From Minisyncoccota bacterium (GTDB lineage: Bacteria; Patescibacteriota; Minisyncoccia; Phycocordibacterales; UBA2100), in NCBI GenBank assembly GCA_965267345.1, contig OZ253947.1, positions 573,043-637,042 of the forward strand: a stretch of 64,000 bases of DNA. The letters are read 5' to 3'. Below the pieces are notes generated by a model that saw only the letters and a program-made list of their open reading frames with translations, ran no database searches and had not been told where the DNA came from. Each line of letters begins with the position of its first letter. The first letter of the stretch is position 1. Positions 4,216 to 51,023 of the stretch are shown here, piece by piece. The position numbers were made by a program, and so were the translations under genes.

Positions 4216-4608
4216 TTACAGACCGATTTGGAAACCGACTGCGGCAAGGTACGCGCCAAGAATGAGCGCAAGGATACCCACGAAGACGGTGAGGTTGCGC
4301 TGACGCGCAAACAGCTTCGCCCACTTGATAAGCACACCCGGAATGAAGAAAATCAAAATTCCCTCAATGAGCATGAGCCACCCGATGAGCGTCGGTACCA
4401 CACGCCATGTCGCCTCCCAGACGTTGTGACTCAGGACAACGAGCAGGCCAAGAATGATGGCCATTGCGCCCGTTACAAACATGAGCGAGCGGTTCTTGCT
4501 CATGTCGTTCACGATTGAGACAACAAATTTGCGTCGCGCGAGCACCACGATACCTTCGAGGATCAGGTACAGTCCCATGACTTGGGCAAGCAAAAATGAA
4601 AGTTCCAT
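4216..4608 (-). CDS. small polytopic membrane protein (hypothetical)
   Basis: 130 aa with 3-4 hydrophobic helices and no recognisable catalytic motif. Confidence 0.5.
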   Translation of the reverse strand: MELSFLLAQVMGLYLILEGIVVLARRKFVVSIVNDMSKNRSLMFVTGAMAIILGLLVVLSHNVWEATWRVVPTLIGWLMLIEGILIFFIPGVLIKWAKLFARQRNLTVFVGILALILGAYLAAVGFQIGL

Positions 4609-9158: not shown

Positions 9159-9192
9159 GATGTGGCGTATGATACCACACGACACGAACACG

Positions 9193-9358
9193 AAACCGCT
9201 ATTTTGACGTCAAAATAGCGGTTTCGCACCTTGCACGAGGACCGCCCTCGTGCAAACAGAACGACTACGCACCCCATATACAATTGCATACAAGGTCGGT
9301 CCTTGTATGCGAGGGCGGGAGCAAGAAACGCAAAACACTAGGGGCATGCCCTAGTGTT
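9193..9358. repeat. array of four consecutive perfect palindromic hairpins
   Basis: The four hairpins are 9193-9224 AAACCGCTATTTTGACGTCAAAATAGCGGTTT, about 9232-9254, about 9286-9310 and 9334-9358 AACACTAGGGGCATGCCCTAGTGTT. They lie between tRNA-Arg(TCT) and the antiporter gene. Confidence 0.6.
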
Positions 9359-9830: not shown

Positions 9831-10400
9831 CTACTCCCCACCTTGCGGTGCCTCAGCACGCACAGCCACTAATTCAAAAACGCCCGTCCACGTGTCACGC
9901 TGCGACTGCTGGGTGAGCTGTACGTTCACAACGTCAAGTGCCGACGGGAACGCCTCGAGTAGGGCCAGCACCTGCATGACACTCGCGAATGACCCTTCGG
10001 CATTCAGTAGCAACTCCAAATCAACAATGCGATCGTCGTCATCTCGCGAATCACCTACCTGCACTGACGAAACAATCGTTTGTGCATTCGCGTACGTGCC
10101 GAGCGATTCGATCTCTTCGAGAAACGTCACGAGCTCTGTGTCGTTTACAAAGTACGTGTTGAGTCGCGCACGCTCATCGCGCGTATCGCGCACCACACGA
10201 CGCACCGTTTGCGTGTGTGCGTTGCGCGTGGCGAGCAGTTGCGCGTCTCCGGCAACCTGCGCCGCTTGCGTGATTGTTTCGCGCTCTTGCACAAAGAGCC
10301 ACGCATACCCACCGGCACTCGCACACATCACCAGAGTGCTAAGGGCGGCAAAAATACGCAGGCGTGTATGTGACGGAAGGTGTGGCATATTACTGTTCAT
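9831..10400 (-). CDS. PilO-like type IV pilus assembly protein
   Basis: N-terminal TM helix plus a periplasmic coiled-coil/ferredoxin-like region. Its position after pilN is the main support. Confidence 0.5.
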   Translation of the reverse strand: MNSNMPHLPSHTRLRIFAALSTLVMCASAGGYAWLFVQERETITQAAQVAGDAQLLATRNAHTQTVRRVVRDTRDERARLNTYFVNDTELVTFLEEIESLGTYANAQTIVSSVQVGDSRDDDDRIVDLELLLNAEGSFASVMQVLALLEAFPSALDVVNVQLTQQSQRDTWTGVFELVAVRAEAPQGGE

Positions 10401-10938
10401 CGGTACGAACTACGACAACTGAAAATGTGGTTTCCTGAGCACTCACCAAGTCCGACACCGGCAGCGTGACGCGCGCAAATACAGGATTTTTACGCAACGT
10501 GCTCACAAATGCACTGAGGGTCTCACGGTTGCGCGCCTCCCCTGAAATGCGAAGTTGCCGTGCACCATCGTCAACACCATAGGCAATACTTGAGATGATG
10601 ATATCGGCTGCGTGCAGCTCCCAATCCTCTAGCACATCGTACACAAAGGGTGTTACAACCTCGGGAGCCATCGCATCAAGAGTACTCAGTTGCGTTTGTA
10701 CAAACCGCGCCTGTACCACGGCACTGTCTTGTCGCGTTACTTCACGGGTATCCTCCTGCAGGTCGTAGTACTGCTGTGTTTCAAGCAACATCGTGCGTGA
10801 CGAAAAATACGCAGGAACGAGTGAGGCGCTGCCGATAACAAACGCGACCGCAATAATGAGTGCGCCGACGATCACCACCCGCAGGGCGTAGTCATGTGCG
10901 AGTGCGCGTCGATACTCTGGAGGAAGAACGTTCGCCAT
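10390..10938 (-). CDS. pilN: PilN-like type IV pilus assembly protein
   Basis: Short cytoplasmic N-terminus (MANVLPPEYRR), TM helix and periplasmic domain. Overlaps the pilO start by 11 nt. Confidence 0.6.
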   Translation of the reverse strand: MANVLPPEYRRALAHDYALRVVIVGALIIAVAFVIGSASLVPAYFSSRTMLLETQQYYDLQEDTREVTRQDSAVVQARFVQTQLSTLDAMAPEVVTPFVYDVLEDWELHAADIIISSIAYGVDDGARQLRISGEARNRETLSAFVSTLRKNPVFARVTLPVSDLVSAQETTFSVVVVRTDEQ

Positions 10939-13650: not shown

Positions 13651-13682
13651 CTATAGTGAGCGATGAGCTCGTGTTTGTAAAG

Positions 13683-13720
13683 CACACCGCCCGAACGCAC
13701 GAGTGCGTTCGGGCGGTGTG
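13683..13720. terminator. 16-18 bp perfect hairpin 3' of tRNA-Ser
   Basis: CACACCGCCCGAACGCAC/GTGCGTTCGGGCGGTGTG. Confidence 0.55.
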
Positions 13721-13726
13721 CCCATG

Positions 13727-13841: not shown

Positions 13842-14768
13842 CTACTCTTCTTCGTCATCGTCCTCGAGTTCCTCATCACCAAAACGACGACGGATGAATC
13901 CCCAACACACGTGAATCGCACTGGCACCGAGTACCGCAATATGACCGTAAAAAAGAATACCGTGTTCAAGGATAGTGCCCGTCACCGCAGCACCCGCAGC
14001 GGCAATTTGATGCGAGCGCCGCTCACCTTCTTCTTGTGCCGTCGGTTCAAACCCCTCGCTGGATGCTCGCTGTGCTTCAATGTCAGCAAGTGCCGCGCGC
14101 TGTTCTTGTTCATAGGTGCGCACGACTTGTGCACTTCGTTTTCGCGCATCCTCAACAGAGCCAATCACACCCCCGAGCCCTCCTTCTGATACGTCATCAG
14201 TTGCCGGTTCCGTACCCTCGTCAGCGTCGCGCTGTGCCGTCAGTCGTGCAAGGAGCTCTTGCCCGCGCTCGCTTAATGACGGTGCTGGCTCTTGTGGTGC
14301 CGGCGTCAGCGGTTCCGCGTCATCGACATCGGCAATACCGTCATTGTCATCATCACTGTCGGCATCGTTCGCGACCCCATCGCCGTCTGCATCGGGATGT
14401 ACCGTCAGTTGCTCGGTTGCAAGGACTGTATTTGTAACAGCGGTGTTGTTCGTTGGCGTAAAGGTCATGCCTACACGATACGTGCCGACGGGAAATTGAT
14501 GGGCAACCGCAATACGAGTGATGTTGTGTGCCGAGACACGCACCTCAACCGCGCGCGTGGCAATACCGTCTACCGTCAACGTGGCAATACCGGTGAGCGG
14601 CTCACTCGCTTCGTTCCGCATAACCGCATACACCGTCACGGGCGTCGCGTCAGTTACCGCCGTCTGCGAAAACCAAATCCCGTCAACCAGACCGGCCGTG
14701 TCAGCGCTCGCCACGAGCGGAGCAAGCGCTACGACACACAAACTCATTGCAACGAGCTTACGGAGCAT
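13842..14768 (-). CDS. secreted/anchored hypothetical protein with Asp-rich calcium-binding-like repeats
   Basis: Signal peptide, DADGDGVANDADSDDDNDGIADVDD (thrombospondin-type-3-like) segment, then a C-terminal TM helix and acidic tail. Confidence 0.5.
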   Translation of the reverse strand: MLRKLVAMSLCVVALAPLVASADTAGLVDGIWFSQTAVTDATPVTVYAVMRNEASEPLTGIATLTVDGIATRAVEVRVSAHNITRIAVAHQFPVGTYRVGMTFTPTNNTAVTNTVLATEQLTVHPDADGDGVANDADSDDDNDGIADVDDAEPLTPAPQEPAPSLSERGQELLARLTAQRDADEGTEPATDDVSEGGLGGVIGSVEDARKRSAQVVRTYEQEQRAALADIEAQRASSEGFEPTAQEEGERRSHQIAAAGAAVTGTILEHGILFYGHIAVLGASAIHVCWGFIRRRFGDEELEDDDEEE

Positions 14769-19303: not shown

Positions 19304-20221
19304 ATGTTCCGCGCCATTTTAACTGCAGCAGGTATCCTCATTCTCCTCGTCGGTGGATGGTACCTCGTGCAAGTATTTCGCACGGCAACGGTAACCACGA
19401 ATGCACCTACGCAGTCGTCGTTTTTTGGCTCAGGCTCGCTCGCTGACTTTGGTGCACAGCTCACTGACGGACTCGGCATCTACCGCGCCACAACTGAGCC
19501 ACCAATTGTGACCACCGATGAACTTGGTGAAATTTCCCCGTCGTCCGGTTTAGTTGAAATTGTCAAAAACAGCACACCACCATCACGGAGCGACGTGGCA
19601 CGCGAGTACGTGCTGCTGCGCGCTCGAGCAGATAACGCACAACCGGTTAATATCACCAACTGGTCGCTTCAGAGTATGATCAGTGACAGCTGGTTCTCTA
19701 TTCCCCAAGGTGTTCGTGTCTACCGTGCGGGTGAGGTAAATGAACTCCACGACATTTACCTGCGTCCGGGCGAAACGGCTATTGTGGCAACAAAATCGGC
19801 ACCGGTGGGTGTGGCATTTCGCGCAAATCGCTGTTCAGGTTTTTTGGGAAGCGTCCAAGAATTCGAGCCGAAACTCACGAGCACCTGTATTGCGCCACGC
19901 GAACTACTCCCCCCAACCGTTGCAAACATCACCACGTATGGCGAAGCGTGCGTGGACTTTGCGCAAACGTTTGACAGCTGTACGTATCTCACCAGTGCAA
20001 CACCCGGCTTCGACACTCTCTCACCCGCATGCCGTGAGTACCTCCAGCCACGTCTGACGTACAATTTCTGTCTCGATACCCACGCAGCCGACGAGAACTT
20101 CTTCGCCGACAGTCACTGGCGTGTCTTCCTCGGACGCCCAGACGTCATTTGGCGAGAACACTACGAAGTAATCCGCCTCCTCGACGCACAAGGACGTACC
20201 GTTGATGCGTTCCCCTACTAG
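19304..20221 (+). CDS. hypothetical secreted/anchored protein
   Basis: N-terminal TM helix and a Cys-containing C-terminal region. No assignable domain. Confidence 0.45.
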   Translation: MFRAILTAAGILILLVGGWYLVQVFRTATVTTNAPTQSSFFGSGSLADFGAQLTDGLGIYRATTEPPIVTTDELGEISPSSGLVEIVKNSTPPSRSDVAREYVLLRARADNAQPVNITNWSLQSMISDSWFSIPQGVRVYRAGEVNELHDIYLRPGETAIVATKSAPVGVAFRANRCSGFLGSVQEFEPKLTSTCIAPRELLPPTVANITTYGEACVDFAQTFDSCTYLTSATPGFDTLSPACREYLQPRLTYNFCLDTHAADENFFADSHWRVFLGRPDVIWREHYEVIRLLDAQGRTVDAFPY

Positions 20222-20688
20222 CGTAGTGCAAACAGCATAATACCTGCTGCAACACTCACGTTGAGTGATTCTTTTGTGCCGTATTGTGGAATTTCCGTGA
20301 TAGCGTCCACCTGCTGCAGGATATCTTCAGGGATGCCGCTCACTTCATTTCCAAGCACGAGCGCGATGCACTCGTGCGCTGCCGCCGCAATGGTGCGATA
20401 CGGGAGTGCACTCTGATGCTGTTCGAGTGCGACCGTGTAGTATCCGTCTACACGGAGCTCCGTAATGAGCGGTACCGTTTCGGGTACCACCTCCCACGCG
20501 ACCTGCTGTTCAGCACCAAGTGCTGTTTTAGCAATGTCTTTCTGGGCCCGCCCAAAACGATCAATCGGTGAGGGCGTATAGCCGCTCAGGTATACGTTCT
20601 GCACCCCTGCAGCGTCGGCGGTGCGAAAAATAGCCCCGACATTGTGCGTGCTGCGGATATTGTCGAGTATGAGCACAATCTCTGTCAT
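20218..20688 (-). CDS. SpoU-family (TrmH/TrmL-like) RNA 2'-O-methyltransferase
   Basis: Minimal SPOUT fold with ..LVLGNEVSGIPEDIL.. and ..ESLNVSVAAGIMLFAL.. motifs. Start trimmed to MTEIVLILDN. Confidence 0.8.
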   Translation of the reverse strand: MTEIVLILDNIRSTHNVGAIFRTADAAGVQNVYLSGYTPSPIDRFGRAQKDIAKTALGAEQQVAWEVVPETVPLITELRVDGYYTVALEQHQSALPYRTIAAAAHECIALVLGNEVSGIPEDILQQVDAITEIPQYGTKESLNVSVAAGIMLFALR

Positions 20689-20755
20689 GTGTGGCAATCC
20701 TAGCATTTGTCACTCAGATAACGCTACTCACGCGTGCATCTCATCAGGCACGCAC

Positions 20756-20843
20756 CTGTTTCGATTAATCGAAACAGAAACAGTGCCATGCAAAAAACGC
20801 AGCTAACTGGCATCATCACAGGTGTTTCGATTAATCGAAACAC
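20756..20843. promoter_or_regulatory. two 22-bp perfect palindromes (core GTTTCGATTAATCGAAAC) 66 bp apart; candidate dimeric-regulator operators
   Basis: The two sites are 20756-20777 CTGTTTCGATTAATCGAAACAG and 20822-20843 GTGTTTCGATTAATCGAAACAC. They lie in the intergenic region upstream of the SpoU gene. Confidence 0.55.
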
Positions 20844-20915
20844 TTCTTAGAATATGCGGAGTATGTGTAGTAAGTGGCACCCCTAGGTGCGCAGGCTGTC
20901 CAAACTCGCCGACCA

Positions 20916-20950
20916 AAAAGTATTTACGTAAATAGTTACGTAAATACTTT
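20916..20950. terminator. AT-rich hairpin AAAGTATTTACGTAA-atag-TTACGTAAATACTTT 3' of tRNA-Lys
   Basis: 13-bp stem followed by a U-run on the minus strand. Confidence 0.6.
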
Positions 20951-20980
20951 AGATGCCCTAACTCCGTTTTCTTTACGTTG

Positions 20981-21053
20981 TCCGCCCGGCAGGACTCGAA
21001 CCTGCGACCGTCGGCTTAAAAGGCCGCTGCTCTACCAACTGAGCTACGGGCGG
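20981..21053 (-). tRNA. tRNA-Lys (anticodon TTT)
   Basis: 73 nt with anticodon loop CTTTTAA and acceptor CCGCCCG/CGGGCGG. No CCA. Confidence 0.8.
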
Positions 21054-21094
21054 ATTCTGGGAATATAGCACAAAGGTCGGCACTTTTAAATGCG

Positions 21095-23068
21095 CTACTC
21101 GTCAGTGAAATCAACCCGCACGTCGCGCGTCACCGTCTCGTCAAACACCGTCTGACACTCAAGTGTGTAAATTGCCGCACGAATCTGATTGTCAGGTAAT
21201 ACCGTTCTGCTGCTACTAAATGGCTCGGTCACGACGACGCCTTGCGTCTGCGCGTAGTCAAATCCGCGCGGTCCGCGTACCCGACAACTGTCCATAAACA
21301 GACTCCCCCATGCAATGCGCACGCGCTCACCGCGTGATGCTTCAGTCGGGTGCGCGGTGATGTCGTACTGCGGCTCACCAACCATCACCGTGCAGGTATT
21401 TGTACCGATCACCTTTCCTTCATCGGTACACGAAATTTTATACTCAGTATTGTGCTCGGGCGTAACCGTGAGCGTATCCGCCAAACTGCCACCGGTATCA
21501 ATATTCACGCCGCTACTGCTGTCTGCCGAGGCAATACATGCCCAGTCAATCTCTGTTTCTTCGTCCGGGCGGACAATCGACGGCTCGCAGCTCAGCCGCG
21601 GTGGATGTGCACCCGTTGGCCCTGAACCACCTTCGCCGACAAAAACGAGTGCCGAACAGGTTGTGTCGTTATCATTCGCGCCTTGGGCTGTCAGAATGTA
21701 CTCTGTCGTCTGATCAATCGTCACTTGCTGCTCACCGTTACCCGGCAAGTTGTCACCAATACCGGAAATCGACACTGATTCGGCATTAAGGGTACGCCAG
21801 CGTACGATAATAGTGTCGCCAACCACCGCATCGCGCACATTGGTGCTCAGTGCACACTGCGGCCGTCCTGAAGCCGGCGATGTGTCTTGGCGACACACAA
21901 TGCGGCCGTTCTCTGTTGTTTGCGTGTAGCCGTCGCGACACTGACGATCACGTTCGTCGCTCTCGTCACCTCCGCCGGAGAAGACGAGTCGCCCTGAAAT
22001 CGCACCGACAATTTGTCCGAGCGCCTGTCCGAATCGACTTGAGCCAAGTCCGTCAAAAATACCTGACACACCCCTGCCGACTTTACACATAAAGCCGCCG
22101 ACGCCGTCACCACATTGCGCCTGTCCTGCCCGTCCCTGCGGGATTTTGGGAACACACTTATATTCCTGTCCAATTTGCGGCAGTGTCGTCGGGGCGCCAT
22201 TCACCATTTGCTGTGAGAGCGTTGCTGTCGGATAGCAGGTCACCGCGCCGCGCCACGCACACACTCCTGCATCAGCGGCAGTGGCAGTGGCTTGTGCATT
22301 CCGCCCGTCACGCACCGCCACAAGGTTTTCGTATATCTGCTGGCACCGTGCAGGAATGGTCACCCGTCGCTGCCCCTGCTGGTTTGATTCAATCGCAACA
22401 CGACCGTCTTCATCAAACGTAAACGCCCTTCGATCAACACAAATGAGCTGCTTGAGTTCTGCCTCGCCAAGCTTGAGGGTATTTAAATCGAGAATGCGCT
22501 GTTGTGCATCTTCACGCACTGTTTCAACACGCACGTCCGATTGGCCAATACACTGTGCGAGTTGGTCAAGGGCTTTTTTAATCGGGTCGTTTGCCGTACC
22601 GTAGCAGTCAACCGGTGTCGGCACTCCGTCGGCGAGCCCGACATACGTTGTCGTACAGCGATTACGACACGCTTCCCCTGCCCCATTGAGACAGTTCTGT
22701 GTCGTGGTGCGCGACTGAACAATTCGTTGTGCAACAAAGTTCGTTGCCTGCGATGAGAGCTGTACTTCCTCACCGTCGAGGGTCCCGACACAACGTGTCG
22801 GACTTTCGCACGACAACACCAGTGGTGTACCTGAAGCAGTGCCGACGCAGCGCGTTTCGACGCACGACAAATCCTGCACGCGATCACCATTGGCATAGAG
22901 TGTCCTGTCCGCACCCACAGTTACCGTAGCGGCATCTGTCGTTTGTGTATTTTGCTGCGCGTGCGCCACGCCCACACCCGTCATCAGGAGCACGAGTGCC
23001 ATGCCGGCAACGAGACCAACGTGTATGAAGTGCGATTGGTGGCGAAGTGTACGTATCAGGTAGTGCAT
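21095..23068 (-). CDS. large Cys-rich secreted protein (hypothetical)
   Basis: 657 aa with a signal peptide and repeated ..RCVGT.. Cys motifs. Confidence 0.5.
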   Translation of the reverse strand: MHYLIRTLRHQSHFIHVGLVAGMALVLLMTGVGVAHAQQNTQTTDAATVTVGADRTLYANGDRVQDLSCVETRCVGTASGTPLVLSCESPTRCVGTLDGEEVQLSSQATNFVAQRIVQSRTTTQNCLNGAGEACRNRCTTTYVGLADGVPTPVDCYGTANDPIKKALDQLAQCIGQSDVRVETVREDAQQRILDLNTLKLGEAELKQLICVDRRAFTFDEDGRVAIESNQQGQRRVTIPARCQQIYENLVAVRDGRNAQATATAADAGVCAWRGAVTCYPTATLSQQMVNGAPTTLPQIGQEYKCVPKIPQGRAGQAQCGDGVGGFMCKVGRGVSGIFDGLGSSRFGQALGQIVGAISGRLVFSGGGDESDERDRQCRDGYTQTTENGRIVCRQDTSPASGRPQCALSTNVRDAVVGDTIIVRWRTLNAESVSISGIGDNLPGNGEQQVTIDQTTEYILTAQGANDNDTTCSALVFVGEGGSGPTGAHPPRLSCEPSIVRPDEETEIDWACIASADSSSGVNIDTGGSLADTLTVTPEHNTEYKISCTDEGKVIGTNTCTVMVGEPQYDITAHPTEASRGERVRIAWGSLFMDSCRVRGPRGFDYAQTQGVVVTEPFSSSRTVLPDNQIRAAIYTLECQTVFDETVTRDVRVDFTDE

Positions 23069-36748: not shown

Positions 36749-37501
36749 CTACCTTTTACGCGCCACAATAATCAGACGAGGCGATTCTGGAGCGTACGCT
36801 TCTCCTTCAAAGTTTCCGAATACCTTTTCCACCGAACAGCCATACCGATCTAGCATGTCGTGCAGCTCTGGGAAAAAGTAGTGTCTCCAGGAACCCGTTT
36901 TTTCTCTTGGTTGTCCGCTTTTTACGTATCGATACGTAAGTGTATGCTGCATAGTGACTGGATCAAGCATTTGTTCAGCCTCAAACGAATCGTAGACATC
37001 CACCTGCCGCCACTGTGTGTTTGAAAACGCCACCACATCGCGCACGGGATTACGCACATCGATAACAACTTTTCCGCCCTCACGAACGCTGGTGCATATA
37101 TTTGCCACGACACGTTCGTTTTCTGCGTTCGTTCGAAAATATCCGAGTGACGAAAACAGATTAAGCGCTGCATCAAACGCACCCTCTTTTGCATACTCGC
37201 GCATGTCCGCCGTTTCGTACGAAAGGCGTTTTTGCACGTCACTGGGTAGAAGCTCTTTGGAATGATTCGCTCTTTGCAGCATACTCTCAGACGCATCAAT
37301 TCCGTGCACCATATACCCAGCCTTGGCAAGGAGCTCGTCGTGACGCCCATACCCACACGGCATATCTAAAATATGCTGCGTTGTAGCATCAAACACGTGA
37401 TCTATTAAAAAAGAAACTTGTTTCTGGGTGCGTTCGGCAGTTAAATTCCCCTCATAGAGAGAAAAATAATCTTCATCAAAATACTCTTCAGTCCAGTGCA
37501 T
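36749..37501 (-). CDS. class I SAM-dependent methyltransferase
   Basis: Rossmann SAM motif ..ILDMPCGYGRH.. and ..GGKVVIDV.. Confidence 0.75.
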   Translation of the reverse strand: MHWTEEYFDEDYFSLYEGNLTAERTQKQVSFLIDHVFDATTQHILDMPCGYGRHDELLAKAGYMVHGIDASESMLQRANHSKELLPSDVQKRLSYETADMREYAKEGAFDAALNLFSSLGYFRTNAENERVVANICTSVREGGKVVIDVRNPVRDVVAFSNTQWRQVDVYDSFEAEQMLDPVTMQHTLTYRYVKSGQPREKTGSWRHYFFPELHDMLDRYGCSVEKVFGNFEGEAYAPESPRLIIVARKR

Positions 37502-39474: not shown

Positions 39475-40587
39475 TTATTGCACCAGCAGCGTACGCACCA
39501 CAAACACTTCGTGCAGCGCTGCCTCGAGCTGGCCTTGAGCCCAGAGTATATTCCCCTGTGCACGTGCCTGTTGCACCGCGGCAAAACGGCCTTCGAGTGA
39601 ATCGATACGCGCTTGAGTCTCCGCCGACACTGTCGATGCAGCTGCTACGTCCGCATACATACGCGCTCGCTCCTCTTCAAATAGTTTCAAAAGCTCCTGT
39701 ACCACCGCCTCGGTTTCAGGATCACTGCCGTATGACTCCACGGCCATGGATGTCGCCTGCTGTGTTGGTAGCGTCTCAGGCGCACGTAGTGCCATCATTT
39801 CAGGCTCGCCGCCTTCACGCATATCTGCTGCGTCTGTATCGGTGTCATCGCGCGGTGCGCTCATGAGTGCCATGGTCTGCACCTCCCCTTCTCCTGCTGA
39901 CTCCTCTTTTGCAACCACTGAGCCGCCGACACCGGTGCCATGGCCATCACCGGCAGCAGGTGCCATCATCGCCATGGTTGCTGCCTCGGGCGCTGCAGGT
40001 GCATCGAGTGTATCAGCAGCGTAGGCAACGGTTGGTGTCGCTGCGTCGCGCGTTCGTGCCGCAAAGGCAATGCGCAGCGCAGCTGCTTTTGCCGGCGCTG
40101 CTGTCTCAATTGCCGCAACGCGCTGTTGGAAGTAGTCACCCGCCTCTGCAATTGTGTTCAGAGCAATAACTTCGCGTTCACCCGTGAACGCCTCGCGCGT
40201 TGCGAGCGCTGAGGCTTCAGTGATACGTCGGTGGACACGCTCAAGCGCCCACTGCGCACGTGCCTCGTCGTTAAACAGGAATTCTCCCTGAATATCTTCA
40301 GCGGCAATTTTTACGCCGTAGAGCGTGTCACCGGGAAGGGCATCACGAGCAGCGAACGTTGCACTGCCGCTCCCCACCACAACGAGCATTAAGACAGCGA
40401 GTGTCGCAACCAGTCGATACTCGAGCAGCATGTGCAGGTACGCGCCGCGCATGCGGCGCGCTGTTTTCGGTCGCACCGGTGTGTGCTCCATATACGCATT
40501 GATTTTGTCGCGCATGCGCTCTTTCTCAGCCGTACTGAGCTGTACCGTTTTGCTGACGTCGTTAATATGTCGTTCGAATATACTCAT
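39475..40587 (-). CDS. putative anti-sigma factor (single-pass membrane protein with large Ala-rich extracytoplasmic domain)
   Basis: Immediately downstream of, and overlapping (ATGA), the ECF sigma gene. TM helix LVATLAVLMLVVV. Confidence 0.55.
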   Translation of the reverse strand: MSIFERHINDVSKTVQLSTAEKERMRDKINAYMEHTPVRPKTARRMRGAYLHMLLEYRLVATLAVLMLVVVGSGSATFAARDALPGDTLYGVKIAAEDIQGEFLFNDEARAQWALERVHRRITEASALATREAFTGEREVIALNTIAEAGDYFQQRVAAIETAAPAKAAALRIAFAARTRDAATPTVAYAADTLDAPAAPEAATMAMMAPAAGDGHGTGVGGSVVAKEESAGEGEVQTMALMSAPRDDTDTDAADMREGGEPEMMALRAPETLPTQQATSMAVESYGSDPETEAVVQELLKLFEEERARMYADVAAASTVSAETQARIDSLEGRFAAVQQARAQGNILWAQGQLEAALHEVFVVRTLLVQ

Positions 40588-41129
40588 ATAGTGTGTTCCT
40601 CATGTGCCGCAAGCGTTTGGCGCAATTTCTTCATACCGCGATTAATCCGCACTGATACGGCATTTTCAGTCTCACCCAACACGTCGGCAATCTCTTTCGG
40701 GCGCAGTTCGTCAATGTAGCGCATGACCACCACGCTGCGGTACTGATCGGGCAGTGCCCCGAGTGCTGCCTGTAAATCGTCTGACTGAAAGCGAATATTG
40801 GCTTCGTCTTCCGCACTGTCGCGGTCGCCGCTGCGCAGCTCATCAAATGAGCCTTCTTGCACACCATCATCGGCATCGAGCAGCGCGTCGAGGGACGTGC
40901 TCTTTTTTTTGCGGTACTCGTCAATGATCAGGTTGTTGAGAATACGAAACAGAAATGCGCGCTCGTTGCGTATTTCTTCTCCGCGTGCAACTTTGTCCCA
41001 TGCTTTCATAAATGCATCTTGGACCAACTCAATGGCGCGCTCGCGATTCGACACGCGGAAAACGCAGTGCCGAAACAGTGCATCTGCATGCGCTTCGTAG
41101 ACATGTGCGAAGGCCTGCTGGGTATCCAT
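40584..41129 (-). CDS. ECF (sigma-70 group 4) RNA polymerase sigma factor
   Basis: Region 2 (..FRHCVFRVSNRERAIELVQDAFMKAW..) and region 4 HTH (..LRPKEIADVLGETENAVSVRINRGMKKLR..). Confidence 0.85.
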   Translation of the reverse strand: MDTQQAFAHVYEAHADALFRHCVFRVSNRERAIELVQDAFMKAWDKVARGEEIRNERAFLFRILNNLIIDEYRKKKSTSLDALLDADDGVQEGSFDELRSGDRDSAEDEANIRFQSDDLQAALGALPDQYRSVVVMRYIDELRPKEIADVLGETENAVSVRINRGMKKLRQTLAAHEEHTI

Positions 41130-41248: not shown

Positions 41249-41782
41249 ATGGCAGGACACAATAAATGGTCAAAAATTAAACATAAAAAGGCAGCGACCG
41301 ACGCGGCAAAGAGCAAAGTGTTCGGAAAAATGGCACGTTTGATCGCCGCTGAGTCAAAGAAGACAAACGGTGATACCTCAGCACCAAGTCTGCGCGCAGC
41401 GATTGATAAAGCACGCGCCGAAAACATGCCAAAAGACAACATCGACCGCGCCGTTGCCAAGGGTACTTCGGCAGACGCCGCGGCCATGGAGCCGATTATC
41501 TACGAAATGTACGGCCCATCGGGTACGGCGGTGCTGATTGATATCCTCACCGACAATCGCAACCGCACTGCTGCTGAAATTCGTCACCTGCTCTCAAAAA
41601 AGGGCTACGAGCTTGCGACGCCCGGCAGCGCTGCATGGGCCTTCACCAAGAATCCTGACGGCACGTACGACGCACACACAACGGTTGAAATTACCGAAGA
41701 GGACGGCGAGAAGCTCGATGCACTGCTCGAAACACTTGAAGATCACGACGACGTACAGGACGTCTACACCAACGCAGTCTAG
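41249..41782 (+). CDS. yebC: YebC/PmpR-family probable transcriptional regulator (short form)
   Basis: MAGHNKWSKIKHKKA.. and ..DVQDVYTNA.. termini. At 177 aa it lacks part of the usual middle domain. Confidence 0.8.
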   Translation: MAGHNKWSKIKHKKAATDAAKSKVFGKMARLIAAESKKTNGDTSAPSLRAAIDKARAENMPKDNIDRAVAKGTSADAAAMEPIIYEMYGPSGTAVLIDILTDNRNRTAAEIRHLLSKKGYELATPGSAAWAFTKNPDGTYDAHTTVEITEEDGEKLDALLETLEDHDDVQDVYTNAV

Positions 41783-46701: not shown

Positions 46702-47814
46702 CTAGCGATTCATTGGCATCACCAAGTAGGTAAACGATTGATCGCCGACTGGGGTAATAATGAGTGGTTTTCCGACGCCGGCAAATGAGAGCGTGAGGCT
46801 GTCAGTCGGTATCGACTGGAGACAGTCGGCAACGTAGCGGTGGTTGAAGCTGATATCAAGCTCTGCACCAGTGAGTGTCGCCTCGAGTGAGTCAAATACC
46901 TCGCCAACATCTGCATTACGTGCGCTCATGGTGAATGTTTTCTTTTCTGGATACACATGAAGAGTGATCTGTCCGAATTTATCTGAAAAAATATGTGCTT
47001 TTTTGAGCGTATTTGCAAAATCCTCTTTTAAAAGTACGGCTTCAGTAGTGGTGTCTTTCGGAAGAATACTTCGATAGTCAGGGAATGAGCCGTCAATAAT
47101 ACGGGAGGTAATAAAGAGTGTATCCGTCTGTACTGAAAACTGATTCTCATCAATAAATACGATAAGTTCTTCGTCTGTTTTAGTATCGAGGATACGCATT
47201 AACTCAGTGGTATTTTTTGCAGGCATAATGACTGTAGGAATGTCACTATCTTCTTCACCGACGCGGTGTGGGATTTTCTTTTCTGCAAGACGAAATGAGT
47301 CGGTTGCGACAAAAAAGAGGTGATCATCCTCATGGTACATATACACACTCGCGAGTTCAGGCTTAATGAGTGAGGTTGAGGCGCTATAGAGAACCGAGCG
47401 CACACCGCTTATAAGCTTTGTCTGCTGTATTTTATACGCGGGAGCTGTTTCAGGACGTGGAATTGAAGGAAAATCCTCATATGGCACTGTTTTGATTGTT
47501 GTTTTTGCACCACCTGACGTCACCACAATCGTCCCGTCACGCTCCTCAATAGTAAGTGTGGTCGCTGATGGTGATGTTTTAAGTGTTGAGAGAAGTGTGT
47601 GTGCAGGAACAGCAACCACCCCCTCCTTCTCTACATCAACAGAAAAGGTTTTCTCAATACCGATTTCAAGGTTTGTTGCTTTTAATACAACTGTGTCTTT
47701 TTGCACATCGAATACCACACAACGAAGTACCGGAAGTGTTGCTGACTGAGCGACAATACGCGACGCGGTGTCCACAGCAGTTTCAATATCTTTTTTTAAA
47801 CACTTTAATTTCAT
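46702..47814 (-). CDS. dnaN: DNA polymerase III beta sliding clamp
   Basis: 370-aa three-domain clamp. Position downstream of dnaA. Confidence 0.9.
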   Translation of the reverse strand: MKLKCLKKDIETAVDTASRIVAQSATLPVLRCVVFDVQKDTVVLKATNLEIGIEKTFSVDVEKEGVVAVPAHTLLSTLKTSPSATTLTIEERDGTIVVTSGGAKTTIKTVPYEDFPSIPRPETAPAYKIQQTKLISGVRSVLYSASTSLIKPELASVYMYHEDDHLFFVATDSFRLAEKKIPHRVGEEDSDIPTVIMPAKNTTELMRILDTKTDEELIVFIDENQFSVQTDTLFITSRIIDGSFPDYRSILPKDTTTEAVLLKEDFANTLKKAHIFSDKFGQITLHVYPEKKTFTMSARNADVGEVFDSLEATLTGAELDISFNHRYVADCLQSIPTDSLTLSFAGVGKPLIITPVGDQSFTYLVMPMNR

Positions 47815-48060: not shown

Positions 48061-49425
48061 CTAATTGTGTATAAGTGTTCGGACATGATTAACCTCTTGG
48101 TCGAGGATTGGGTCAATCTTTATCTCCCCTTTCACCTTCTCACATGAGTGAATTACTGTTGTGTGGTCACGGCCACCAAGTTTTTCTCCAATACTTGGAT
48201 AGGAAATACCAAAATCTTCACGCAGGATGTACATAATGACCTGTCGCGGACGCACCACCTCTTTCTTACGCGTCTTTTTATAGATGTTTTGCTCATCTAC
48301 TTCGTAGTATTCTGCGATTTTCTTCACAACATCAACCACCGAAATATTTTTATTCGGTTTTGTGGTGTTCTTCACCACATTTTGTACCTCCTGTGTACTG
48401 AGCTCCTTACCCTTAAGTTGTGTTTTGCACATAAGGGTGTTTAAAAGCCCCTCAAGCTCACGAATGTTACCTGGAACTTCTTTTGCCATGTACTCAATTA
48501 CGTCTTGGGGCACTAAAAAGTCGTGCTGCCGTGCTTTCTCGCGCAAAATTTCAATACGTGACTCCACATCAGGGTTTGGGATCTCAGCGATCATACCGGC
48601 GCTAAACCGCCCGCGTAGGCGGTCTTCGAGTCCAAGAAGGTTATTCGGGTGCTTATCTGACGAGAAGACAATTTGTTTGTTGTTGTCGTAGAGTGCATTA
48701 AAGAGATGGAAAAGCTCTTCTTGGGTGCGCTCTTTATCGGCAACAAATTGAATGTCGTCCATGATTAGTACGTCATACTGACGGTACTTGTCTTTAAAGG
48801 TATTTCCCTTCCCTGTTTTAATCGCATTAATGAAGTCCATCACAAATCGCTCCGAGGTGACGTAAAACACCTTCCGATTCGAGTTGGTTTTCTTTAAATG
48901 GTTGCCAATCGCCTGTATCAGGTGGGTTTTACCATGTCCTGTCGCACCGTAAATAAAAAGTGGGTTGTAGGTCAGGCCTGGATTTTGAATAACCGCCTGA
49001 GCTGCGGCGTGCGCGAGCTGGTTGAAGGGGCCGACAACAAACGTATCAAAAGTGTAGCGCGGGTTAAGGTTGTCACGTCGGTCAATAAACATGTCCTGCA
49101 ACGGCATCTGATTCTGCGGCGTGGTGGTCTGTGTTGGAATACGTTGTTCCCCTGCAGCCTTTTTTGCCGCATTCTTCGTCACCACATACTCGATACCGCG
49201 GATTCTATCTTCGAATCCACGCAGTGTTTTTAAAAGAAACTTGTGATGCTTCTCTTGGAGCCAGTCTTTAACAATTTTATTTGGAACGCCGATAAATACG
49301 ATGCCCGCGTCGCGCTTAATGATGATGGTGTCCTTAAACCATGTGCGAAAACTTGCCTCTGATGTGTTCATTTCAATATGAACGAGCGTGTTTTGCCACA
49401 ATTCTTGGTCACTCAACATACGCAA
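48061..49425 (-). CDS. dnaA: chromosomal replication initiator DnaA
   Basis: AAA+ Walker [11 protein letters not shown], sensor motifs and a C-terminal DnaA-box-binding HTH (..[10 protein letters not shown]..). Confidence 0.95.
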
Positions 49426-49907: not shown

Positions 49908-50234
49908 GTGCCTATGCTCAGTAAGAAGAACCGCGCCACAACACACGACATACGCGAAACACTCGGCCGACGGCATACGACACGCCACGGCTCGCACCTG
50001 TCACTGCGCTACTCACACGAGCACATCGATGCGCCACTGTGTAGTGTTGTTGTCTCAAAACGCGTCGCTCGCACCGCTGTCGCTCGCAATGCGCTCAAGC
50101 GCAAGCTCCGCGCCGCACTCAAAGAGATCGAGCACCTTCTCCCCCGCCGCACCATCATCGTGTACGCAAAAACAACAGCGCGGGATTTGTCGGTGCGGGA
50201 AGCCGCGACGGAGATACTCAACCTACTCGCGTAG
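49908..50234 (+). CDS. rnpA: ribonuclease P protein component
   Basis: Basic 108-aa protein following rpmH, with ..KRVARTAVARNALKRKLR.. RnpA motif. Confidence 0.8.
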   Translation: MPMLSKKNRATTHDIRETLGRRHTTRHGSHLSLRYSHEHIDAPLCSVVVSKRVARTAVARNALKRKLRAALKEIEHLLPRRTIIVYAKTTARDLSVREAATEILNLLA

Positions 50235-50285: not shown

Positions 50286-51023
50286 ATGTTTAATACGTTC
50301 ATCTACACACCCCTGTATAACGGCCTCATCCTCTTCATCGATTTTGTGCCGTATGCCGATGTGGGCATCGCTGTTATTTTGCTCACGATTCTCGTAAAGC
50401 TCATACTCTTTCCACTGGCGCACAAGGCAGCGCACACACAAGCGCGTATGCGCACCATGGCGCCGCTCATTGAGGAGCTCAAGGAGACCTATAAAGATGA
50501 CCGTCAGCAGCAGACGCTGAAAATGATGGAGCTGTACCGTGAGCATAATGTACGGCCATTTTTTAGTCTGCTCACTATCCTCATTCAACTCCCGATTATT
50601 CTCGGGCTGTACTGGGTCTTTTTTAAGGGTGGTTTGCCAACCGTTAATCCCGACATACTCTATAGCTTTGTGCCGTTTCCCGATAACGTGAATATGCAAT
50701 TTCTCGGCCTCATTGACATGGGAAGCCGCAGTCTCCTTTTGGCAGCACTTGCCGGTCTGACACAGTTTGTGCACACCTACTTTGCGCTGCCGGCACCGGC
50801 AAAGCGCAGCGAGAATCCGTCACTTAAAGAAGATTTGGCGCGCAGCTTCCACCTTCAAATGAAATACGTCATGCCGATCATTGTTGCCGTGGTCGCCTAC
50901 ATCATCTCAGCCGCCATTGCACTCTACTGGATTACCAGCAACCTCTTTGCTATCGGCCAAGAGCTTATGGTACGCCGCCAAATTGCGAAAGCTGAGAATA
51001 CATCCGCGCATGACAACACATAA
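50286..51023 (+). CDS. yidC: membrane protein insertase YidC (short form)
   Basis: Five TM helices with the YidC/Oxa1 core pattern. Position after rnpA. Confidence 0.85.
   Translation: MFNTFIYTPLYNGLILFIDFVPYADVGIAVILLTILVKLILFPLAHKAAHTQARMRTMAPLIEELKETYKDDRQQQTLKMMELYREHNVRPFFSLLTILIQLPIILGLYWVFFKGGLPTVNPDILYSFVPFPDNVNMQFLGLIDMGSRSLLLAALAGLTQFVHTYFALPAPAKRSENPSLKEDLARSFHLQMKYVMPIIVAVVAYIISAAIALYWITSNLFAIGQELMVRRQIAKAENTSAHDNT

Follow-up and report, generated by a model that had tools for sequence, protein, structure and literature searches.

The locus upstream of a SpoU/TrmH-family RNA 2'-O-methyltransferase gene in a Minisyncoccota bacterium (GenBank contig OZ253947.1) raises the question of why two nearly identical perfect palindromes stand side by side in front of it. 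The stretch of DNA that was analysed, here called the window, is 64,000 nucleotides long. A first-pass annotation of the window had described the palindromes as paired operators of a looping dimeric repressor and had guessed at a TetR-, Xre- or LacI-type partner. In this study, we found that the palindromes are probably operators of a dimeric helix-turn-helix (HTH) regulator of the Trp-repressor family (PF01371), which would control transcription into the SpoU gene. The guess at the partner was wrong, because the family associated with the motif is TrpR/YerC (PF01371).

The gene-proximal palindrome 1, CTGTTTCGATTAATCGAAACAG, is located at 20756-20777, and the gene-distal palindrome 2, GTGTTTCGATTAATCGAAACAC, is located at 20822-20843. 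Reading of the sequence confirmed that the two differ at the outermost base pair. Both are perfect 11+11 palindromes with the identical 20-mer TGTTTCGATTAATCGAAACA inside, in which the halves TGT-TTCGA-TT and AA-TCGAA-ACA meet at the centre. The 20-bp cores at 20757-20776 and 20823-20842 were designated as the putative TrpR-like operators O1 and O2, respectively. Their start-to-start distance is 66 bp (about 6.3 helical turns), as had been given before, and a 44-bp spacer separates the two 22-bp palindromes. The 18-mer core was found at these two places in the window and nowhere else at up to three mismatches, which agrees with the earlier statement that the motif has no further copies there, and the expected number was 0.03. 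None of 100 shuffles of the window contained two core matches, and loop-free perfect palindromes with arms of at least 10 numbered 0-1 in 20 shuffles. The 20-bp core is AT-rich, and the host genome has about 54% G+C.

In bacterial and archaeal genomes taken at one genome per species, the 18-mer was found at 16 loci. The 20-mer was also found on nine metagenome contigs, mostly from groundwater. By our own estimate, about 9 matches to the 18-mer and about 0.5 to the 20-bp palindrome are expected by chance in 596 Gb, and the 18-mer matches in Lachnospiraceae, Paenibacillus, Pedobacter and others were taken as chance or terminator hairpins. The full 20-mer was present at eight genome sites, five of which were in two Patescibacteria metagenome-assembled genomes (MAGs). 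The whole of MAG H52-bin007_1 contained four exact 20-mers: two flank an open reading frame (ORF) of 138 amino acids (aa), the third is found between secY and adk, and the fourth between recO and a gene for a membrane protein. The Parcubacteria MAG BS150m-G57 contained the 20-mer once, plus one variant. The genomes that share the identical core are distant and have 35-45% GC. No copies of the motif were found in viral contigs.

The 138-aa ORF, P0001, identified the protein family associated with the motif. In L006, L018, and L023, the exact 20-mer is located 17 nt upstream of the ATG of P0001 and 28 nt downstream of its stop. Close relatives of P0001 number only 12, and the Joint Genome Institute named one of them 'YerC'. 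Searched alone against Pfam and NCBIfam, P0001 and P0002, which is 85% identical to it, gave only a weak HTH_23 match; the placement of P0001 in PF01371 is based on the family profile and the Pfam matches of the wider family. A search of 1.8 billion representatives with the family profile returned 1292 clusters at 50% identity, 522 of them at E<=1e-10, and nearly all of the cluster proteins were 130-145 aa long. P0001 matched this profile with an E-value of about 1e-48, and PF01371 (Trp_repressor) was matched by 137 of 149 diverse members (best E 5.9e-15). Names at the source included 'YerC' and 'Trp family transcriptional regulator [Patescibacteria group bacterium]', and other members came from Niyogibacteria, Giovannonibacteria, and Wolfebacteria.

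The fold was examined with an AlphaFold model that used the alignment of 149 sequences (predicted local distance difference test, pLDDT, 85.3), which replaced an earlier and poor model from 12 sequences (pLDDT 62.7). The top 24 PDB matches of the model in Foldseek were all TrpR-family proteins, including E. coli TrpR with and without its operator, putative TrpR proteins of S. aureus and R. obeum, and the TrpR-like protein of E. eligens (3g1c). The Foldseek probability was 0.96-1.00 and the target-normalised template modelling (TM) score was 0.56-0.76; for most matches, the root-mean-square deviation was about 2-4 A over about 90 residues. A sequence search of PDB with a narrow profile returned only spurious matches to de novo TIM barrels, and hhalign of a 12-sequence profile against E. 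coli TrpR gave no informative result. The membership of the clade in the TrpR family is well supported by the Pfam matches and the model. The family protein is a plain HTH protein with no catalytic domain. A near-invariant GMPxxGKxRWKWL follows the HTH at the C-terminus, in a low-confidence part of the model, and we take this tail to be absent from E. coli TrpR.

We compared the palindromes at nine independent loci carrying family members that were 33-100% identical to the P0001/P0002 group. In all nine loci, a single perfect palindrome was present both upstream and downstream of the family gene. The palindrome differed between the proteins, with about eight distinct types over the nine loci. 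The palindrome was TGTTTCGATTAATCGAAACA in L006, TATTTCGATTAATCGAAATA in L026, AGTACAGTTAACTGTACT in L028, TCTTTCGATATATCGAAAGA in L029, and TGATACGATATATCGTATCA in L031. L027 has three copies of TATTTCGGTTAACCGAAATA, of which the two upstream ones are 62 bp apart and resemble the 66-bp pair of the window, and L032 has ACTCCAGTTAACTGGAGT with a third copy. In L030, the palindrome is CGTACGATTAATCGTATG and its upstream copy is imperfect (CATACGATCAATCGTATG); the core TACGATTAATCGTA is common to L030 and L033, and in L033 it is present in both copies, which differ in their outer bases. L029 also contains a 64-bp perfect palindrome (14058-14121) of three operator-like units, 3.6 kb away in a 780-bp gene-free gap, for which Rfam returned only sub-threshold miRNA-hairpin noise.

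In L006, L026, and L027, the upstream palindrome ends 6 nt before a conserved TGnTATTAT, which is itself 6 nt from the ATG. Read from the sequence, the operator here covers the -35/spacer region of an extended -10 promoter that is leaderless, which is how autorepression is classically arranged. The neighbourhood of L28, ComEC(MBL), and M50 peptidase genes was kept among orthologues of 46-85% identity, while the palindrome drifted (L006, L026, L027, and L030). Therefore, protein and site co-evolve in place.

A previous report described the TrpR motif TGTAcTnGTnnACnAgTACA and the HisR (YerC) motif cacTTTAnnnnnnTAAAgtg as 20-bp palindromes (PMC9413887). These motifs are lineage-specific and co-vary with the protein, autoregulation is frequent, and about half of the hisR genes have a site of their own in front (PMC9413887). 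In this study, the palindromes of the window were found to be even, two-fold symmetric sites of about 20 bp and of the TGT...ACA type, with the same length as the TrpR consensus and a match to 4 of its 8 specified half-site positions. The same sequence was found at the autoregulatory position of a PF01371 gene, that of P0001, and the site co-varied with the regulator over its homologues at the nine loci. The idea of paired operators was thereby strengthened by operator-like behaviour, namely the 20-mer shared with a PF01371 gene, the co-variation of palindrome and protein in 9/9 loci, and the small number of copies. The looping that had been proposed with it is an assumption made from the spacing. 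TrpR-family proteins are known for the binding of dimers in tandem and are not known for tetramer loops.

The order of elements on the minus strand is tRNA-Lys, a hairpin, palindrome 2, palindrome 1, and the SpoU/TrmH gene. The SpoU_methylase ORF spans 20218-20706 on the minus strand. Its likely start is the ATG at 20688, because an AGGA Shine-Dalgarno sequence (20701-20698) precedes this ATG and the protein read from it is 100% identical to the 156-aa database protein P0013. The gene (20218-20688) thus encodes 156 aa and matches Pfam PF00588 with E=5.7e-33, and its NCBIfam RlmB/TrmH-like matches were below the equivalog cutoffs. The next best homologues were 54-61% identical and came from named Parcubacteria, Kaiserbacteria, and Pacebacteria. 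About 67 bp lie between palindrome 1 and the SpoU ATG. The distance from the SpoU start to tRNA-Lys, previously put at about 270 bp, was 291 bp from ATG 20688 or 273 bp from the start at 20706. SpoU is the only plausible target of the sites, because the plus strand offers nothing to regulate.

The tRNA-Lys(ttt) gene (20980-21053, minus strand) is transcribed toward the palindromes, and the promoter scan found a promoter-like TTTAAA-17-TGcTATATT at 21090-21062 on the same strand. An AT-rich minus-strand hairpin (GTATTTACGTAA / TTACGTAAATAC, then TTTTT) at 20915-20950 lies between tRNA-Lys and the palindromes and may be the terminator-like end of the tRNA-Lys transcript. The promoter/terminator scan did not flag this hairpin, possibly owing to its AT-rich stem. 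A TTACGTAAATA-like unit in tandem makes up the hairpin, whose AT content is unusually high in a genome of 54% GC.

From these elements, we propose that one regulator dimer would bind each 20-bp site. The regulator would belong to the large uncharacterised Patescibacteria-specific clade of ~135-aa proteins and would be encoded in this genome outside the window. Binding would repress SpoU: the bound protein may occlude the SpoU promoter, block read-through from tRNA-Lys, or do both. Promoters of tRNA genes in this genome have TAnnnT, often with an upstream TG, and three weak candidate -10 elements for SpoU were read by eye on the minus strand. A candidate extended -10, TGtGATGAT (20812-20820), lies 1 nt downstream of palindrome 2, in the same layout as the TGnTATTAT just after the operator at the regulator genes of L006, L026, and L027. 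With this -10, palindrome 2 would lie over the -35/spacer region and palindrome 1 at about +40, as in a gal-like pair. An alternative candidate, TATTCT (20849-20854), lies 5 nt upstream of palindrome 2, and with it both palindromes would be in the 5' leader and could act as roadblocks. A third candidate, TAGCGT, lies about 30 nt after palindrome 1. Blocking of read-through is a reasonable additional role, because the pair stands directly after the putative terminator of the strongly transcribed tRNA-Lys gene in the same orientation and because sites elsewhere lie between co-directional genes (secY-adk, recO and the next gene, atpD-atpC, and recJ-rnhA).

Several results weigh against operators of a TrpR-like repressor at this locus. 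No family gene was found in the 64-kb window by tblastn or by hmmsearch at E<=1, and no protein of the source contig (644,490 bp) was among the 120 listed of 807 family matches. The first-pass annotation had correctly noted that no regulator gene is adjacent, and neither a gene of the cognate family nor another classical repressor was found in the window. The promoter/terminator scan found no consensus promoter for SpoU. L034, a relative with the same gene order (ruvA, Mur ligase, an unnamed gene, and spoU), has a SpoU of 60% identity, the gene for which has a 44-bp upstream region with no palindrome; the control of SpoU is thus not conserved and is lineage-specific, because the spoU gene of L034 lacks the palindromes. 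The Foldseek E-values were weak (0.2-0.9), because the domain is small and helical. Bracketing of a regulator gene by its own site on both sides is odd, as neither TrpR nor HisR is known for it. Finally, in other genomes, some copies are located at gene ends, between convergent genes or in terminator-like hairpins (L006 downstream, L019, L025, L029 14058-14121, and L032 13583-13610). Therefore, the sites are not purely promoter elements, and these copies are not explained by simple promoter occlusion.

The resemblance to known operator systems was then considered. The sites resemble the E. coli TrpR operators (trpEDCBA, aroH, and trpR) in being even 20-bp palindromes with TGT...ACA ends and an A/T centre, and of the variants, that of L028 (AGTACAGTTAACTGTACT) comes close to the trp operator. 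The likeness extends to a small dimeric HTH partner that is predicted by the model to have the same fold, to an operator at the regulator's own promoter, and to more than one operator per control region. However, the core here is TTCGA-TTAA-TCGAA and not ACTAG-TTAA-CTAGT, the clade protein is about 30 aa longer with its GMPxxGKxRWKWL tail, and the targets are SpoU here and adk, atpC, rnhA, yebC, and NUDIX genes elsewhere, not tryptophan genes. HisR (B. subtilis YerC, Firmicutes) belongs to the same Pfam family, and Patescibacteria proteins are annotated as 'YerC'. Unlike these proteins, HisR controls histidine biosynthesis and transport with histidine as co-repressor, whereas no his genes are involved here and Patescibacteria seem to encode several paralogues whose sites differ. 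A classical TrpR or HisR amino-acid regulon was rejected, as the target is a SpoU/TrmH methyltransferase and the core differs from both consensus motifs. The pair is also like the dual-operator systems lac O1/O3, gal OE/OI, and deo, in which a promoter is flanked or preceded by two high-affinity palindromic operators spaced by tens of bp. If TGtGATGAT is the -10, the likeness to gal would be closer, with one site overlapping the promoter and the other at about +40. In contrast to those systems, the phasing of 66 bp (about 6.3 turns) is only approximate and looping is assumed here from the spacing.

Palindromes of different types stand side by side in some Patescibacteria loci. In L002 (433-474) and L005 (4218-4261), ATCATACGATAT(AT)CGTATGAT lies 2 bp from the 20-mer. 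L005 also has a variant of the 20-mer, TGCTTCGATTAACCGAAGCA, at 4320-4339. In L020 (2049-2066), CTATTGGTTAACCAATAG lies 68 bp from the 20-mer. The pair distances elsewhere were 62 bp in L027, 78 bp in L005, and 68 bp in L020. The different palindrome types side by side in L002, L005, and L020 suggest that several paralogous regulators act together in Patescibacteria. We also considered whether the 46-bp spacer of the window pair is the scar of a deleted bracketed regulator gene, as the flanks of P0001 in L006 sum to 45 nt. This was rejected, since the sequences showed no similarity and only a single palindrome would remain after recombination between the two.

A different use of the same protein and site is unlikely. 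According to this explanation, the TrpR-like proteins of Patescibacteria, with palindromes on both sides of every gene and extra sites located before genes as well as in terminator-like intergenic hairpins, are not ordinary promoter-occluding repressors and represent a new use of an HTH protein and its palindrome, either as insulating roadblocks or as a selfish cassette. As roadblocks, the bound proteins would shield genes in very compact genomes from read-through, and the window pair would be an insulator between the strongly transcribed tRNA-Lys and SpoU. As a cassette, the HTH gene and its palindromes would form a selfish unit analogous to repetitive extragenic palindromes (REPs) and their REP-associated tyrosine transposases (RAYTs). 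If this were true, the family, having many paralogues with sites that co-evolve, could serve as the principal set of transcription factors in the Candidate Phyla Radiation.

The palindromes could also act at the RNA level. Transcribed in the SpoU 5' leader or by read-through from tRNA-Lys, they would form two hairpins with a 9-bp stem and a UUAA loop and, with no DNA-binding protein involved, would influence processing, stability, termination, or translation. We consider this improbable. The minus-strand RNA of 20689-20900 did fold with both hairpins (z = -3.76 versus shuffles), but this z-score is trivial, as it follows from the perfect palindromy. Elsewhere, the same cores are found inside longer hairpins with A- and T-runs at gene ends (L019 1593-1630, L025 2660-2700, L032 13583-13610, and L027 2890-2930, where the core is at 2901), which from their sequence look like bidirectional terminators. 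In the window, however, no T-run comes after the palindromes on either strand, and the scan called no terminator at either of them. An Rfam search of 20000-21500 at E<=1 returned only tRNA-Lys and a sub-threshold antisense match on the tRNA gene, with no match at the palindromes. An intrinsic terminator was rejected on the same grounds, the tRNA-Lys hairpin being a separate element. Furthermore, RNA stems would tolerate G-U pairs and changes in the loop, whereas the two-fold symmetry here extends through TTAA, the would-be loop, and the palindrome co-varies with the adjacent HTH protein, both of which are marks of dimeric DNA sites.

Very unlikely, in our judgement, is a selfish palindrome family of the REP/RAYT type or like miniature inverted-repeat transposable elements, in which the TrpR-like gene would move as a cassette together with its palindromes and the pair in the window would be an orphan without a regulatory role. 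As with RAYT genes and their REPs, palindromes always stand on both sides of the family genes, and the further intergenic copies, some of them at convergent gene ends, add to this likeness. In L029, a 50-bp unit is exactly repeated (9875-9924 and 10452-10501) on both sides of the TrpR-like gene that splits atpD from atpC, in addition to the third, triple copy 3.6 kb away. The neighbourhoods of family genes also vary between genomes. Against this, the copy number is very low, with 2-4 copies per genome compared to tens to hundreds for REPs. The perfect, AT-rich palindromes go together with a plain HTH protein that lacks a catalytic domain, and not with an HUH Y1 transposase. The L28/ComEC(MBL)/M50 synteny was kept while the palindrome drifted, which indicates co-evolution in place and not movement. 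No target-site duplications were seen. The first-pass annotation had named a dispersed REP-like terminator at gene ends throughout the genome as the alternative to its operators. REPs or bacterial interspersed mosaic elements were rejected, as there were two copies in 64 kb at up to three mismatches and four exact copies in the whole of H52-bin007_1, and the gene flanked there encodes a PF01371 HTH protein, not a RAYT.

Binding by another DNA-binding protein, such as a ParB/Noc-like protein at a centromere or a nucleoid protein, is less probable again. The palindromes are about 29 kb from dnaA and oriC, and the origin is inside the window. The outer hexamers TGTTTC...GAAACA are presumably equal to those of parS (TGTTTCACGTGAAACA). 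However, the site is 20 bp long and not 16, its central 8 bp are different, and the half-sites are displaced by 4 bp. The canonical 16-bp parS TGTTNCACGTGAAACA was absent from the window at up to three mismatches, and the 20-mer and its variants are tied to PF01371 genes and not to parB. Chance or neutral duplication without function is scarcely credible, since, despite the lack of conservation in the syntenic L034, two perfect 22-bp palindromes with an identical AT-rich core in a genome of 54% GC stand against 0.03 expected, and the core is identical to sites in distant genomes of 35-45% GC.

Operators of a TrpR-like regulator, our preferred explanation, would bear on a group in which regulation is hardly known. 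Patescibacteria (Candidate Phyla Radiation) are uncultivated, with reduced genomes and few recognisable transcription factors, and our search of the accessible literature brought up no account of TrpR-like regulators or of their sites in this group. An operator pair of a TrpR-family regulator is of a known kind; the motif, the kind of target, and the very large uncharacterised clade are new. That the palindromes are operators is unsurprising, and it is the assignment of protein to site, the series of specificities, and the bracketing that make regulation in Patescibacteria testable. A defined DNA site is linked to a defined and abundant protein family (1292 clusters at 50% identity), the approximately eight protein/site pairs are natural specificity variants that can be tested directly by gel shift, and the bracketing rule offers a simple computational handle on the recognition code of the family. 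The sites also suggest dedicated transcriptional control of an RNA-modification gene, the SpoU/TrmH 2'-O-methyltransferase.

By its gene content and its best SpoU homologues, the window is assigned to a Patescibacteria (CPR) genome of about 54% G+C from an isolated lineage. Its genes include those for type IV pilus, DUF5652, ruvABC, and polA, together with many unannotated ORFs. The genes dnaN (46702-47814, minus strand), dnaA (48061-49425, minus strand), rnpA (49908-50234, plus strand), and yidC (50286-51023, plus strand) lie beside the minimum of the cumulative GC skew at about 50-52 kb, and therefore the replication origin is inside the window. Between 46 and 50 kb, the G+C content falls to 0.46. 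Two regulator-like genes, and no others, were seen in the window: that of an extracytoplasmic function (ECF)-type sigma factor (40584-41129, minus strand) and yebC (41249-41782, plus strand), which are divergent from each other. In L028, a TrpR-like gene with its palindromes is located directly upstream of yebC. In L034, a Y1_Tnp gene (IS200/RAYT-type) is located at 9866-10558, near the syntenic ruvA-spoU block of this closest relative.

Other palindromes and hairpins were also observed in the window. A 36-bp perfect palindrome, CGAAACCGCTATTTTGACGTCAAAATAGCGGTTTCG (9191-9226), immediately precedes TGgTATCAT and the start codon (ATG, 9157) of a Na/Ca-exchanger gene, and is probably another operator of a different type. 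Three hairpins with a 10-bp stem and a 5-nt loop (9231-9255, 9286-9310, and 9334-9358) precede it, downstream of tRNA-Arg(tct). This layout of tRNA-Arg, hairpins, CGAAACCGCTATTTTGACGTCAAAATAGCGGTTTCG, and exchanger gene mirrors that of tRNA-Lys, hairpin, twin palindromes, and SpoU. Long perfect hairpins follow several tRNAs in the window; the one right after tRNA-Ser(tga) has 19-bp arms (13682-13721). An 18-bp perfect palindrome, TTACGTATCGATACGTAA (36922-36939), lies within a class I methyltransferase ORF (36749-37501, minus strand) and has TTACGTA in common with the tRNA-Lys terminator hairpin.

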